Source: a virus
Direction: 5' to 3' (one strand)
Length of the DNA stretch: 7,995 nucleotides
UHGV virus genome: UHGV-1440563
The notes under the pieces are model-generated. The model saw nothing but the letters and a program-made list of their open reading frames with translations, had not been told where the DNA came from and did not search any database. The position numbers and the translations under genes were made by a program. Below, one piece after another: positions 3,582-7,995 of the stretch (its first letter is position 1; the number at the start of each line of letters is the position of its first letter).

Positions 3582-4855
3582 TCACCCCCTTTGCGAAGCA
3601 ATGAAGTTAAAGAAGTAAAGACATACCAGAACGTAAGGCAATAAAAAACCCATGAAAGAACATCTTTAATAGTCAGTAATTTATCGCAACCAATATCAAT
3701 CTGATAAACCTCTCCGGGAAAAATAATAAAATCAGAGCAGCCGTTACCATTGGGTAAATTAGGCAGCATAGCACCTTTATTTAAAAATGCTTCCCATAAA
3801 GCACCGTGAGAATCCTTTTCAATTCCCAATTCAGAATCAGCCAAAGTAGAAGCGCCATCTAATTCAGAGTCGCCCTTTCCATAACGAGAATCACCACCTG
3901 AAGGGTCAGCAAAACGGCCAGCCCCCCGCGTAAGATTGTTAATGGAATCGTCAAGACGATTTATATTATTCCTGGTTTGTTCATCGGCATTTTTTTTATC
4001 ATCTGATGAAGTGTCTTTCTCCGTTAATTTATCATGAATATCGCTGGCTATTTTGGGTGAAGCACCTTCGATCGCAGACTGAATATCACCTTTAGAAAGA
4101 CTGGAACCACTAGAGCCACCGCCAGAACTACCGCCAGAGCCACCGCCAGAACTACCGCCAGAACTACCGCCAGAGCCACCGCCAGAACTACCGCCAGAAC
4201 TACCGCCGCCAGACTCACCACCACCGGACTCACCACCGCCATTTTGGGGGGTTGAGGGTTTATCAGAGGGGTCAGCTACAGCACCTGTAGGCTTCCATGT
4301 TGCAGCGCAAACAGTACCATCACCCTGACAAACAATGACACCAGTAGCCTCATATTCACAGCCGTTATAGTAGATATAGCGACCACCATCATATGAATCA
4401 ACATTATTAAATACACCTTCTTCTGGCGGCTTCGCTTCACAAATTTCTTCTGGTGTCGGGTCAGTAGGTTTTTCATCAGGAACAGAACGCTGAATATTAC
4501 CAACAATATAAGCCGTTAAAGACCAATATTTATCCTTCTGCCCTGGTGAATCGCTGTAAGTACAATCACCAGTAAAAACAAGACGGAATTCAGAATCAGG
4601 CCAGATACCCTCATAAGTTGGTTTAACCCGAGTAAATACACTCTGAGCACTGGATTTAGCACCCTGACAAGCGGAGGCCTGCATAGCAGCATCAATATAG
4701 TAAACCGTTGTCTTAGAGCCATCCTGATTGGTTATTTGCTTACTTTCAGCGTAGGCAGAACTTTGATAAGTGGATTTAGTAATGCTTTCCCATGACTCAG
4801 CATGTGAAAAAGGAGAAATGAGGACAGCGGAAAGAATTAATATTTTCCTTTTCAT
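3578..4855 (-). CDS. III: pIII adsorption (attachment) protein: signal peptide, divergent N-terminal receptor-binding region, Gly/Ser linker, conserved C-terminal membrane anchor
   Basis: Start set at the internal ATG 4855 ([19 protein letters not shown], compare M13 MKKLLFAIPLVVPFYSHS). Gly/Ser-rich linker. C-terminus NKGAM...NGNG...IGCDKL...FWYVFTS resembles the M13 pIII C-terminal domain. Confidence 0.88.
4100..4240 (-). repeat. Tandem short-period repeats encoding the Gly/Ser-rich pIII interdomain linker (GGGES / GGSS / GGGS units)
   Basis: Reiterated accgccaga(a/g)c units visible on the plus strand; the translation is 47 residues of G, S and E. Confidence 0.85.
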
Positions 4856-5676: not shown

Positions 5677-5991
5677 TTAATGCCAGCTACTGGCGTGCGA
5701 AATACGGTTGTAATCGAAAATAAAACCTTTCTCATAAATCCATAAGGGGATTTCCGCTGGCTTGGCTTCCAGCGTTCTTATTAGCGGAACAACGTTATTA
5801 GAGTCTGGTGAATCACAATAGAAATTAATATCGATACCGAACGAAAGCAATTCTCTTCTATGGCGATAAAAAGTGTTATGAGGTAACATTTCTTTCATGT
5901 TAGCCCCTTGTTTCCAAAGTAAATAAGTTGACTGTATTTTTCTTGGCAGTTTCGTTATTTTTTCATCACTTAAAATAGCATTCTGATTCAT
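5677..5991 (-). CDS. X: pX, in-frame internal restart within gene II (C-terminal 104 aa)
   Basis: Internal ATG at 5991 preceded by GGGAGA SD. MNQNAILSDEK... aligns with the M13 pX start MNIYDDSAVLDA... Confidence 0.6.
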   Translation of the reverse strand: MNQNAILSDEKITKLPRKIQSTYLLWKQGANMKEMLPHNTFYRHRRELLSFGIDINFYCDSPDSNNVVPLIRTLEAKPAEIPLWIYEKGFIFDYNRISHASSWH

Positions 5992-6729
5992 TTCTATTCT
6001 CCCTACATATTCAGAGAATAATTGACGTGGTGTTTTCATATTCCAGTTAGCGCCAAGCGTTAAATTTAAATCAATAAGCTCAGTTGTTCTTAATGTTAAT
6101 TCAATACGTAATTTATCTTTCGTCCAGTCCAGTAACCCGGCTCGTACAAACTCTTCGGCTATCTGGTGCCCTTTTTTACCAGAAACGTGTTCATCATATT
6201 TTGAATAAAATTTCAGACTCCATCGACGGGAGTTTTTACCTAAATAAACTGTACCGCCTTTCCCACATGCGCGACCATGGCGTGTTTTAGCTTTAAATTC
6301 GGCGGCATAAAGCCATGATCTGACATTTTCCAGCGTAGATAATGAATACATGTAATTAATGTCAACACGTGAAATTTTATACTGACCTGCCATAACGGCT
6401 TTATAAGACGCTAAATCATGAGGAATATTCAATAAGGATAAAATCCTGGCATAGACCGTCAACATGAGCCCTTGTATATCATCCGACCCAACAACAGAAT
6501 GCCCCTGCAGAAACTTGGAAGGATTACCATCAATGTACAAATGTGTCGCTTTACCTTCGCCATTAGATCCTATCGATCGTACTTTCATCGTTGCTTCATG
6601 CGAGCCGCGAACAGTCAGTCGCTTAACGGTTTCCCACTCAATTGCACCGTCAGCATCAACGCTGACAACACTCCCCGCCGGAAGCGGTTTGTGTGTGCAA
6701 GGGAAAATCCCGGTAAGCCAATCGATCAC
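5677..6729 (-). CDS. II: pII rolling-circle replication initiator (nickase)
   Basis: Collinear similarity to M13 pII (LQGHSVVGSDD vs LQGHNVFGTTD; NNVVPLIRT vs NNVVPLVRF). Preferred start is GTG at 6729 (V-I-D-W, compare M13 M-I-D-M) with GAGGA SD 7 nt upstream. The track ORF starts at an upstream GTG (6771) that has no SD. Confidence 0.85.
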   Translation of the reverse strand: MIDWLTGIFPCTHKPLPAGSVVSVDADGAIEWETVKRLTVRGSHEATMKVRSIGSNGEGKATHLYIDGNPSKFLQGHSVVGSDDIQGLMLTVYARILSLLNIPHDLASYKAVMAGQYKISRVDINYMYSLSTLENVRSWLYAAEFKAKTRHGRACGKGGTVYLGKNSRRWSLKFYSKYDEHVSGKKGHQIAEEFVRAGLLDWTKDKLRIELTLRTTELIDLNLTLGANWNMKTPRQLFSEYVGRIEMNQNAILSDEKITKLPRKIQSTYLLWKQGANMKEMLPHNTFYRHRRELLSFGIDINFYCDSPDSNNVVPLIRTLEAKPAEIPLWIYEKGFIFDYNRISHASSWH

Positions 6730-6771
6730 GAATAAATCCTCAAAATTGCAAAAATGACGACTTACTAACAC

Positions 6772-6857
6772 ATGAGTTCAGTAGTTCATTAGTGTTTAAA
6801 CATTACACCAGTGAGCTAGTGAGTTCAAGAGGCTTGGATGATATGAGTTCATGAGCA
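6772..6857. promoter_or_regulatory. Direct-repeat array in the divergent gII / RHH-ORF control region: (A/G)TGAGTTCA at 6772-6780, 6819-6827, 6843-6851, plus degenerate copies (GTAGTTCA 6781-6788, GTGAGCT 6811-6817, ATGAGCA 6851-6857)
   Basis: Read directly. Three exact 8-mers within 80 bp in the gII upstream region; candidate operator or origin-associated binding sites. Confidence 0.45.
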
Positions 6858-6898
6858 TGTATACTCACTTCAAATATTGCATTGAACGAGCGTAAAAA

Positions 6899-7081
6899 AT
6901 GGCAAAGCGCACGACTTATAACGTGACGGAAGAAAGAAAAATGAAACTAGAACGACTGGCTATAAATGCCAGTGTAAAACTAGGAAAAACAATTACATGG
7001 ACAGAGATTTTAGGTTATCTGATTGATAACTACTCTAAAGATGCAGCAGAAGATCTCATGTCTGCCAAACAAAAGGATTAA
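6899..7081 (+). CDS. Small (60 aa) putative ribbon-helix-helix (CopG/Arc-like) DNA-binding protein
   Basis: Pattern of short polar/hydrophobic strand (TTYNVT), helix (EERKMKLERLAINA), Gly-containing turn and second helix (ITWTEILGYLIDNY) resembles CopG-type RHH repressors. Only a weak SD. Divergent from gII, with the repeat array between them. Confidence 0.5.
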   Translation: MAKRTTYNVTEERKMKLERLAINASVKLGKTITWTEILGYLIDNYSKDAAEDLMSAKQKD

Positions 7082-7135
7082 GTACCACGAATGGTACAAA
7101 CGTGCAGTATTACCTACACTGCACGTTCTTTTTTG
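7082..7135 (+). terminator. Tandem hairpins after the 60-aa ORF: GTACCA-cgaa-TGGTAC (7082-7097), then a perfect 9-bp stem ACGTGCAGT / ACTGCACGT (7100-7108 and 7118-7126) followed by TCTTTTTT (intrinsic terminator)
   Basis: Read directly. GC-containing perfect stem plus T-run immediately 3' of the stop codon at 7079-7081. Confidence 0.65.
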
Positions 7136-7180
7136 TGCAAATTATAAGCAGCAAGGACGTTAACGAAAAGAAAACTAGTA

Positions 7181-7209
7181 TCGACATTCGAAATGTTAAC
7201 TATTATTAA
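7181..7209 (+). promoter_or_regulatory. Possible sigma70-type promoter for the Doc-like gene (-35 TCGACA 7181-7186, 17-nt spacer, -10 TATTAA 7204-7209); GTTAAC palindromes at 7160-7165 and 7195-7200
   Basis: Hexamer inspection only; both hexamers are imperfect. Confidence 0.25.
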
Positions 7210-7233
7210 CAAATAGAGTAATGGAAGAATATA

Positions 7234-7968
7234 ATGATCACTATAGAAGAAGCAACATCGGTCCATGAATATTTAACAAATTACTATCAAAACTCTGATG
7301 ATCCTATCTCTCCTCCGGGAATAAAAAACATAGAGCTTTTAGAGTCTGCCATAGCAAGACCTTTTATGACCATGAACAGAAAGGATGTCTATCCAGATGA
7401 TTTAGATAAAGCCGCAGCTCTATTTCATGGTGTCATATCCAACCACTGTTTCCATAATGGTAATAAAAGAACAGCACTTCTACTAACCATGTGCTTTTTA
7501 GACCGAGCTGGATATTGGCTGGATAAGTGTGATGACCTGCAACTCTTTGAATTTACAAGAAGTGTTGCGGCACATGAGATATGTAAAAATAGAATTGATG
7601 AAATAAAAACAATCAAGGCATTTTTCCGAAGTAATTCACGGAAGAAAAAAATCACAGATGAACAATTGAGTTTTATTGCATTAAGCAGGCATCTAACCAA
7701 CGCAGGTTTCAATATAGAAGACGATGGTGACTATTACTCTATCTTTAAAAATAATAAAAGATATACAAAAATAATAAAAAAAGGCGCATCAGGACATGAA
7801 AAATACGATCCACAATACATAAAATCCCTTAGAAAAAGATTGCTTCTTACCCCGAAGTATGGATGGGATAGCATAAGGTTTTATCAATTATATTCATCAT
7901 TGACGGAAAACATTGGTGAATTATTACGTTTACGTGGAGAGGTAATGGACTGGCTTGCAAAAATATAA
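7234..7968 (+). CDS. Doc/Fic-family protein (death-on-curing-like toxin domain, residues about 1-125) fused to an unassigned Lys-rich C-terminal region of about 120 aa
   Basis: Motif HCFHNGNKR (residues 71-79, nt 7444-7470) fits the Doc signature HxFx(D/N)(A/G)NKR. The surrounding region aligns with P1 Doc as I recall it (...PGI.N.ELLESAIARP..., NKRTALL..., ...AAHEI). GGAAG SD 6 nt upstream. Confidence 0.8.
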   Translation: MITIEEATSVHEYLTNYYQNSDDPISPPGIKNIELLESAIARPFMTMNRKDVYPDDLDKAAALFHGVISNHCFHNGNKRTALLLTMCFLDRAGYWLDKCDDLQLFEFTRSVAAHEICKNRIDEIKTIKAFFRSNSRKKKITDEQLSFIALSRHLTNAGFNIEDDGDYYSIFKNNKRYTKIIKKGASGHEKYDPQYIKSLRKRLLLTPKYGWDSIRFYQLYSSLTENIGELLRLRGEVMDWLAKI

Positions 7969-7995
7969 TTAAAAAATTTGTTTGGTAGCTGGATA

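Follow-up and report, generated by a model that had tools for sequence, protein, structure and literature searches.

ORF60, a ribbon-helix-helix-like protein encoded opposite gII, as a candidate repressor of a UPφ-type filamentous prophage

The locus and its element

The window analyzed here, meaning the whole 7,995-nucleotide stretch of the UHGV virus genome UHGV-1440563, is a filamentous (inovirus) genome in which all core genes (gII, gV, gVIII, gIII, gVI, gI, and gIV) lie on the minus strand. A plus-strand open reading frame (ORF) encoding 60 amino acids (aa), designated ORF60, sits between gII, the gene for the rolling-circle replication initiator, and a gene for a Doc/Fic-like toxin, and is followed directly by two hairpins, hp1 and hp2 (Table 1). 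With a probability estimated at roughly 65%, ORF60 is the immunity and replication repressor of a UPφ-type, dif-integrating prophage, a counterpart of RstR of CTXφ in position and function and of CopG in mechanism, with the two hairpins forming the (+)-strand origin and the Doc-like gene being cargo.

The classical phages closest to the window are I2-2 and IKe, with about 67–68% nucleotide identity, and a blastn search of positions 6700–7995 against phage records returned no match. Escherichia coli chromosomes match the whole window at more than 99% identity, and these chromosomal copies are arranged in tandem and adjoin hipBA, that is, they stand at dif. The element is a UPφ-type filamentous prophage that integrates at dif, which fits the published description of the UPφ group as defined by Shapiro and Putonti in 2020 (PMC7307601). 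In that description, the reverse-orientation ORF h3 is present in 221 of the 229 UPφ prophages, h4 in 56, and h5 in 57, and none of the three was assigned a function (PMC7307601). By position, ORF60 is h3; it is the same gene, in the same prophage group, as h3 of UPφ901, of which the neighbors h4 and h5 are variable, and it is the repressor, operator, and origin readings given below that are new relative to that paper.

The start of gII is taken as the GTG codon at 6729, which is consistent with the family and is the same start as in RefSeq; the encoded protein is 57% identical to the gII protein of I2-2 and 87% identical to that of a second E. coli prophage, L029 in the numbering of the compared loci, which is discussed below. 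An earlier note made from the letters alone had described ORF60 as transcribed divergently from gII, and this arrangement is borne out, with a spacer of 169 bp between the two start codons.

Table 1. Features of the window around ORF60, in order of position
Feature	Position	Strand	Basis or remark
gII, rolling-circle replication initiator, presumed target of repression	5677–6729	−	Pfam Phage_CRI 9e-70, G2P_X_C 2.5e-29
Divergent control region of gII and ORF60, with candidate operators and two back-to-back promoter-like sites	6730–6898		169-bp spacer
Box cluster 1, TGAGTTCA g TAGTTCA	6773–6789		Immediately past the leftward −10; covers the predicted start of gII transcription
Leftward promoter-like site of gII: TTGAAC (6828–6823), 17-nt spacer, TAATGT (6805–6800)	6800–6828	−	Inferred
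Box cluster 2, TGAGCTAG TGAGTTCA	6812–6827		Overlaps the gII promoter-like site at its −35 and spacer
Rightward promoter-like site of ORF60: ATGATA, 16-nt spacer, TATACT	6838–6865	+	−10 ends 34 nt before the ATG
Box cluster 3, TGAGTTCA TGAGCATG	6844–6859		Occupies the stretch between −35 and −10 of the ORF60 promoter-like site
ORF60, 60-aa ribbon-helix-helix-like protein, candidate immunity/replication repressor	6899–7081	+	ATG 6899 to TAA 7081
hp1, GTACCA cgaa TGGTAC, candidate (+)-origin repeat for binding of the gII protein, corresponding to Ff hairpin E	7082–7097		Folding, covariation
hp2, AACGTGCAGT attacctac ACTGCACGTT, candidate (+)-origin nick hairpin on the gII-sense strand; possible ORF60 terminator with the T-run	7099–7127		Folding, relatives
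T-run CTTTTTTG after hp2, terminator-like in the window phage	7128–7135	+	Sequence
Start of the swappable cargo module	7136–7233		Weak TCGACA-17-TATTAA (read by eye) and Doc ribosome-binding site
Doc/Fic-like toxin gene, 244 aa, cargo outside the ORF60 regulatory cassette	7234–7968	+	Pfam Fic 4e-14, TIGR01550 DOC_P1 1e-13

ORF60 as a gene and its predicted fold

ORF60 corresponds to WP_001335098.1 and to phrog_2503, a PHROGs family listed with function unknown, and at least 1000 contigs, from E. coli, Salmonella, Klebsiella, and their relatives, encode the identical protein, annotated there as "hypothetical". Against relatives at 78–88% protein identity, the synonymous and nonsynonymous codon differences stand at 24:6, 24:6, 29:13, and 25:11; because these differences are mainly synonymous, ORF60 is a real gene under purifying selection, and a spurious ORF is ruled out by these ratios together with the conservation. 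An exhaustive profile search places 77 representative clusters in the ORF60 family, the members of which are all about 55–90 aa long, and a locus search with an alignment of close ORF60 relatives returned only 4 near-identical loci.

The earlier note recognized in the 60-aa ORF the strand, helix, glycine turn, and second helix of ribbon-helix-helix (RHH) repressors, of which the overall topology stands and the canonical turn does not. An AlphaFold2 (AF2) model built on the family alignment (pLDDT 95.6) consists of an extended segment at residues 1–10, a helix at 11–28, a five-residue loop, and a helix at 34–59, which is the RHH-type order of an N-terminal strand and two helices in a domain of about 45 residues. 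CopG (RepA) of pMV158 and the other RHH repressors (Arc, Mnt, MetJ, and omega) share with ORF60 both this topology and a length of about 45–60 aa; moreover, the N-terminal strand of CopG reads KRLTITL and is resembled by K-R-x-T-x-(T/N) in ORF60. The best named match of the model among predicted viral structures (BFVD) is RstR of CTXφ (C9E7D4), with a template modeling (TM) score of 0.89 at 1.0 Å.

Other comparisons are less favorable to the RHH assignment. ORF60 found no match in scans of Pfam, NCBIfam, or PADLOC, and thus differs from the known RHH families in lacking a significant sequence match to any of those in Pfam. A profile search for the fold, which the earlier note had proposed, yielded weak matches only: the ParG profile matched 7 of 61 family members with a best E of 0.019, and a search of the Protein Data Bank (PDB) with the ORF60 family profile gave TTHA0139 at E = 0.007 and ParG at E = 0.19. 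The TTHA0139 fragment, the top PDB sequence match of the family, has itself no Pfam match, and a Foldseek search of the ORF60 model against the PDB returned nothing significant. Two structural details count against the assignment. DSSP assigns no strand in the monomer model, although this is expected for a monomer of a ribbon formed between subunits, and the turn between the helices is not the canonical G-x-S/T/N: it retains G29 but extends over five residues (GKTIT), with W34-T35-E36 next. Across the family the consensus of this inter-helix segment is G-x-x-(I/V)-x-W-(T/S)-(D/E), a variant turn, so that ORF60 departs from the RHH repressors in a longer loop with a conserved tryptophan and in a long helix 2 of 26 residues. 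In the model this helix runs to residue 59 and the protein ends at residue 60, leaving no C-terminal tail. The case for an RHH-like fold from the model is, on balance, good but not conclusive.

Homologues opposite the replication gene

Homologues of ORF60 were retrieved by tblastn from the Vibrio elements VAI1 and VAI2 (there called "RstR-like"), from CTXφ/RS1 of IB1617 ("environmental RstR"), and from pre-CTX 17449 (rstR), and further from V. cyclitrophicus inoviruses, from the saliva inoviruses Dulem 52–56 and D_HF5_61, and, unannotated, from If1 and I2-2. In every locus examined (15+), a set that covers VAI1, pre-CTX, Dulem 52/53/55/56, D_HF5_61, the V. cyclitrophicus phages, and enterobacterial prophages, the homologue is divergent from gII or RstA across a spacer of about 130–195 bp, which is the position and orientation of RstR opposite the replication initiator gene rstA in CTXφ and pre-CTXφ. 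The "environmental" RstR proteins of CTXφ IB1617, pre-CTX 17449, and VAI1 are true homologues of ORF60 with 41–42% identity. In contrast, the RstR proteins of the El Tor, classical, and Calcutta types are helix-turn-helix (HTH) proteins of the Cro/cI type with about 110 aa and would accordingly be analogues of ORF60 and not homologues. The name RstR is applied in filamentous phages to proteins of no fewer than two folds, HTH and RHH-like, which are unrelated and used interchangeably.

The RstR name of the Vibrio homologues itself rests on position, and the VAI proteins were annotated because they resemble the environmental RstR in sequence and gene order (PMC7412436). A tested member of the family probably exists. 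In a study of 2024, eight rstR alleles, rstR6 included, were cloned, and taken as a set they were reported to repress their ig-2 promoters homotypically (PMC11509585). The rstR6 allele has 192 bp, and its primer-derived ends read MKKKYTSLRV... and ...KTDLKR (PMC11509585), which fit the ORF60 family, as exemplified by a V. cyclitrophicus protein that begins MTQKYTSLRV....

Candidate operators and promoters in the spacer

The repeats that the earlier note had seen between gII and ORF60 are real: TGAGTTCA occurs three times in the spacer and four times in the whole window, where 0.33 occurrences are expected. The spacer holds 8-bp TGAnnTCA boxes in three clusters of two, an arrangement that recalls the tandem 8-bp palindromic met-boxes used by MetJ, itself an RHH repressor. 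In all compared loci with an ORF60 that is 78–98% identical, three boxes keep their spacing (about 46–53 and 24 bp). For instance, the box of cluster 1 is kept in L007, L009, L014, L018, and L021 though the flanks diverge, and cluster 2 in L021 and L023 is a perfect 16-bp palindrome, TGAACTCATGAGTTCA. Similarly, the leftward arrangement TTGAAC-N17-TAnnnT, overlapped by cluster 2, is found in 7/7 loci with this ORF60 type, and the rightward −10 (TATACT, TATAAT, or TAGAAT) is conserved in 7 loci, where it lies 27–34 nt upstream of the ATG and after cluster 3.

The gII proteins of the box-carrying loci belong to three unrelated types. The first, that of Brenneria, is 95% identical to the window gII; the second, the If1-type gII of L014, L018, and L021, reaches about 30% in local alignment; and the third, at 26%, occurs in Scandinavium. 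Diverged ORF60 homologues are accompanied by other repeats, which are of the GTATAC type in I2-2 (38% identity), of the TGCATGC type in VAI1 and pre-CTX, and of the AATGAA type in Dulem 53; the V. cyclitrophicus phages likewise carry other repeats. The TGAnnTCA boxes of the ORF60 spacer differ from the TGCATGC-type repeats of VAI1 and pre-CTX. Judged from these alignments, the boxes and promoters are co-inherited with the ORF60 type across three gII types. The TGAGTTCA repeats were also considered as binding sites of the gII protein, a candidate role that was rejected since they remain alongside gII of three unrelated types and are missing from L029, of which the gII is 87% identical.

Two side observations concern the boxes. 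The fourth exact copy of TGAGTTCA lies at 274–281 on the minus strand, inside a 77-aa h-gene distant from the control region; it is probably a chance occurrence but could be a distal operator. In L009, a Scandinavium metagenome-assembled genome, positions 3800–4360 carry an ORF60 homologue with 88% identity and the same boxes, the 388-aa upstream protein has no detectable similarity to the gII of the window or of If1, and neither hairpin type follows the ORF60 homologue; this locus places the cassette in a third replication background.

Proposed mode of repression

In the proposed mechanism, ORF60 would act as a small RHH-like dimer, the N-terminal strand of which (K3-R4-T5-T6-Y7-N8-V9-T10) would read DNA and bind the TGAnnTCA boxes of the three clusters in the 169-bp spacer. 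As the boxes overlap both promoters, such binding would repress gII and at the same time autoregulate ORF60: occupation of cluster 2 would block the −35 and spacer of the gII promoter, occupation of cluster 1 would block the gII transcription start, and occupation of cluster 3, within the promoter spacer of ORF60, would restrain the synthesis of ORF60 itself. With gII shut off, neither rolling-circle replication nor virion production would proceed. CopG has the role proposed for ORF60, control of the transcription of its own gene and of that for a rolling-circle initiator, but the copG gene stands upstream of rep in the same operon, whereas ORF60 is divergent from the replication gene.

The first option of the earlier note, a phage repressor that controls gII through the adjacent repeats, is favored by the synteny opposite gII, the RstR homologues, and the apparent co-inheritance of boxes and promoters, and ORF60 is most likely an uncharacterized small repressor of the known sort that temperate filamentous phages encode opposite their replication gene. 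Some points weigh against this reading: the promoter matches are weak (3/6 for the leftward −10 TAATGT and 4/6 for the rightward −35), the leftward site of gII was not reported by an automatic promoter scan, and the assignment of rstR6 to the family is made solely from its primer-derived termini. Alternatively, ORF60 might be a centromere-binding or origin-accessory protein of the ParG/omega kind that aids the maintenance or replication of the replicative form rather than repressing transcription. Such a role is very improbable, given that the 8-kb genome has no ParA-type partner, that the boxes fall on promoter elements that are conserved for the two divergent genes and track ORF60 rather than the replication gene or the origin type, and that sister phages have RstR or an XRE repressor in the position of ORF60. 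A repressor assignment with concrete operators and a candidate origin would offer a testable handle for inducing or curing UPφ prophages, which are enriched in urinary isolates.

An exchangeable cassette and the classical phages

The sister prophage L029 (E. coli IAL7250, NZ_CM130729, 1832–3570) is a second filamentous prophage at dif/hipA, which combines its closely related gII and the same hp2 with a different regulator: a 148-aa XRE-type HTH protein (Pfam HTH_3; the match to Phage_CI_repr is weak) replaces ORF60, and the spacer of L029 holds no TGAnnTCA box. Its cargo is shared with NCTC9104. This swap of the regulator together with the absence of the boxes indicates that regulator and spacer are exchangeable as an immunity-type cassette, as are rstR and ig-2 of CTXφ; in addition to the exchangeable allele and intergenic region, CTXφ and pre-CTXφ share with the window element the tandem arrays at dif. 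Since more than 85% identity of gII between UPφ901 and Ypfφ has been reported (PMC7307601), the L029 prophage may be CUSφ/Ypfφ-like. By comparison of the loci, the repressor, boxes, and promoters form a self-contained module of about 350 bp that passes between inoviruses whose replication genes differ.

The classical phages I2-2 and If1 carry ORF60 homologues in regions described as intergenic. In I2-2 (L024, NC_001332), the homologue lies unannotated at 2918–2720 on the minus strand, within the "intergenic region", and is frameshifted by one extra A (AAA for AA); deleting this base restores ...TWTDSLNYVIENYTELAEKKMIKELKKKGGV, which is colinear with the intact relative P0138, and the frameshift is either a real pseudogene or a sequencing error of 1992. 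In If1 (L001/L025, NC_001954; 4834–7463), the "major intergenic region" encodes an intact homologue of 63–67 aa, the start of which is abutted by an IS200/IS605 element (Y1_Tnp and OrfB_IS605/TnpB, the old "ORF348") that separates it from gII; the gII homologue itself is "ORF320", the deposited annotation of If1 being outdated. Both of these classical, non-integrating phages carry a compromised copy of ORF60, which fits a repressor role, and the comparison suggests a relation of I2-2 and If1 to temperate ancestors. For I2-2, descent from an integrating ancestor was put forward by the authors of the UPφ study (PMC7307601).

A broader scenario can be offered tentatively, as one that is rather less likely to be right than wrong. 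The repressor, its TGAnnTCA operators, and the divergent promoters would be a mobile immunity cassette that moves between inoviruses with unrelated initiators and origins and inserts each time in the interval from the origin hairpins to gII. Through inactivation of this cassette, temperate ancestors that integrated at dif may have become the classical laboratory phages, which are non-lysogenic. The nick hairpin may double as a leaky terminator, and cargo such as Doc would then depend entirely on read-through that starts at the autoregulated promoter of the repressor.

Hairpins downstream of ORF60: origin or terminator

The first hairpin, hp1, is directly 3' of the ORF60 stop codon, and one base separates it from hp2, which has a perfect 10-bp stem (7099–7108/7118–7127; 5 G-C pairs) and a 9-nt loop that is longer than a typical terminator loop; an automatic terminator scan missed hp2 only since its loop limit is 8 nt. 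Folded as single-stranded DNA of the viral strand, hp1 and hp2 together reach −15.8 kcal/mol (z = −4.7, with 0/200 shuffles as good), and folded as RNA they reach −21.3 kcal/mol (z = −3.9). A scan of positions 6600–7400 against Rfam returned nothing at E up to 1. The earlier note had taken positions 7100–7135 as a strong terminator that insulates ORF60 from the Doc-like gene; the hairpin and T-run are indeed there, but the insulating role is the less likely one, as the T-run is unconserved and the hairpin tracks gII.

Upstream of gII, the filamentous phages of the Ff group (f1/M13) have a nick hairpin, D, and immediately after it a short-loop inverted repeat, hairpin E, to which gpII binds. 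The window resembles this plan in carrying, on the viral strand and upstream of gII, a larger-loop hairpin and then a short-loop inverted repeat. In relatives, the same two-hairpin architecture follows the ORF60 homologue or the end of its small operon. The type of hp2 tracks the type of gII and not that of ORF60: the window type is also found in I2-2 and L029, and a second type, GTTCGGG tgtcacagaa CCCCGAAC, occurs in If1, L014–L023, and Dulem 53/55/56, with gII proteins 53–86% identical to that of If1. In two relatives, Dulem 52 and D_HF5_61, the Ff nick-site hairpin (CTCTTTAATAGTCCAC) occupies this position on the rep-sense strand; it reads GTGGACT-CTCTTTAATA-GTCCAC, and CTCTTGT follows. As for hp1, a compensatory variant is present in L029 (GTCTCA ggaa TGAGAC), and in the If1-type set 96% of cells pair, with 6/7 pairs changed on both sides, against 20–36% pairing in slid controls.

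Alternatively, the hairpin at 7099–7135 could be a plain intrinsic terminator of ORF60 that insulates the cargo, with the origin located elsewhere in the intergenic DNA. The window phage has what an intrinsic terminator needs, namely a stable stem-loop, here of 10 bp, that is followed by a U-run (CUUUUUUG) and is well supported by the RNA fold; a U-rich tract is retained in UPφ variants with other cargo, and Dulem 53 has TTTTTTG, while the Ff nick consensus is not found in the window. Among relatives, though, the T-run is variable or absent (TCTTTATTG, TCTTTTCTG, TCCAGATTTG, CACCCCGCC, CGCTTCGCG), being missing after the same hairpin in I2-2 (CACCCCGCC) and Brenneria/Phytobacter (CCAGATTTG) and after the If1-type hairpin in all enterobacterial If1-type loci (CGCTTCGCG). 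The hairpin persists in L029, where the HTH gene replaces ORF60; in Dulem 55/56 the element follows a second ORF and not the ORF60 homologue; and hp2 is always preceded by a second, covarying hairpin, hp1. A plain terminator is accordingly an unlikely account of the element, albeit one that retains some weight.

Because the hairpins follow the gII type, the T-run is unconserved, and relatives carry an Ff-type nick hairpin at this place, hp1 and hp2 are most likely the core of the predicted (+)-strand origin, which would be recognized by the gII protein, and the T-run may add partial termination in the window phage. Termination at the T-run is thus possible in this phage but would not be the conserved function of the hairpin. 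The differences from Ff must be set against the origin reading, which is positional and comparative in kind. The sequences of hp1 and hp2 are not those of Ff, and neither the Ff nick-site consensus (TTCTTTAATAGTGGAC) nor the gpII repeats occur on the gII-sense strand of the window. The loop/arm junction of hp2, TAATACTGCAC, agrees with the Ff nick-site stretch TAATAGTGGAC at only 9/11 positions; the covariation of a palindrome is expected for hairpins and for double-stranded protein sites alike; and the interval from origin to gII, which houses an A/T-rich enhancer in Ff, is occupied by the putative repressor gene. A stretch of 10 nt identical to the f1 nick hairpin as generally described, CACGTTCTTT at 7122–7131 on the plus strand, was dismissed as a chance match, for it does not lie on the gII-sense strand, and neither I2-2 nor Brenneria conserves it.

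The Doc-like gene as cargo

The gene downstream of the hairpins is Doc-like, as the earlier note had stated: it gives the Pfam and TIGRFAM matches of Table 1 and has a Doc domain at about residues 3–120 with an intact HCFHNGNKR motif, which is followed by a C-terminal extension of about 120 aa. The similarity to other UPφ prophages ends at about 7141–7155, that is, about 15–25 nt past hp2, and the counts in complete E. coli genomes follow this boundary: ORF60 with the spacer and hairpins (6772–7140) is present in 48 of 5426 genomes, and the Doc module (7160–7970) in 5. Elsewhere, ORF60 is followed by a hypothetical gene and a gene of the STM4504/CBY_0614 family, by genes for zinc-ribbon proteins, or by an adhesin-like gene. 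As the comparison of these genomes indicates, the Doc-like gene is accessory cargo located just beyond the putative origin and not a partner of ORF60, and the assignment of a repressor and a candidate origin would explain the exchange of genes such as Doc at one fixed point.

The second option of the earlier note makes ORF60 an antitoxin that acts in trans on the Doc-like toxin, or a regulator dedicated to the transcription of its gene. The closest known system is Phd-Doc of phage P1, to which the locus is alike in having a Doc-family toxin with an intact HxFxNGNKR motif 152 nt downstream of ORF60. Other comparisons speak against this option, which is very unlikely. ORF60 is not Phd-like, without Phd/YefM similarity, and ends with helix 2, leaving no toxin-binding tail; the 152-nt gap contains the hairpin element and a recombination breakpoint. 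Its distribution is uncoupled from that of Doc, in that about 90% of the ORF60-bearing E. coli prophages have no Doc, the identical ORF60 precedes unrelated cargo, and the family is found in phages that have no Doc at all. Likewise, h3 is core and h4/h5 are variable among UPφ prophages (PMC7307601).

The strongest promoter-like match in the region, TTAACA-18-TATAAT at 7206–7235 (11/12), was rejected as the Doc promoter; it is unusable for the Doc ATG because its −10 overlaps that codon. Transcription of Doc would have to begin from the weaker TCGACA-17-TATTAA upstream or to come from ORF60 by read-through. As a side observation, the Doc-like protein has weak PADLOC matches to the candidate defense families PDC-S23 and PDC-M59B, and no Phd-type gene is adjacent to it.

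Other features of the window

Three further elements lie on the minus strand. A dif-like site at 69–101, GGTGCGCATAA-TGTACGACTCG-TTATGTTGAAA, stands between the h1/h2 genes and the cargo; its XerC arm is perfect, its XerD arm agrees at 9/11 positions, and its central region has 11 nt instead of 6, and it presumably serves as attP for XerCD integration beside hipBA. A hairpin with an 11-bp stem at 828–870, GATGGATAGCG...CGCTATCCATC, begins at the gIV stop codon and is a probable packaging signal, the position of which matches the annotated "morphogenetic signal" of I2-2. Lastly, a long imperfect hairpin at about 435–480, AACCCCGGACAATGACAAAA...TTTTGTTAGTGTCAGGGGTT, is located between the UPφ-specific genes h1 and h2 (491–799 and 140–373) and could be a minus-strand origin or a terminator.

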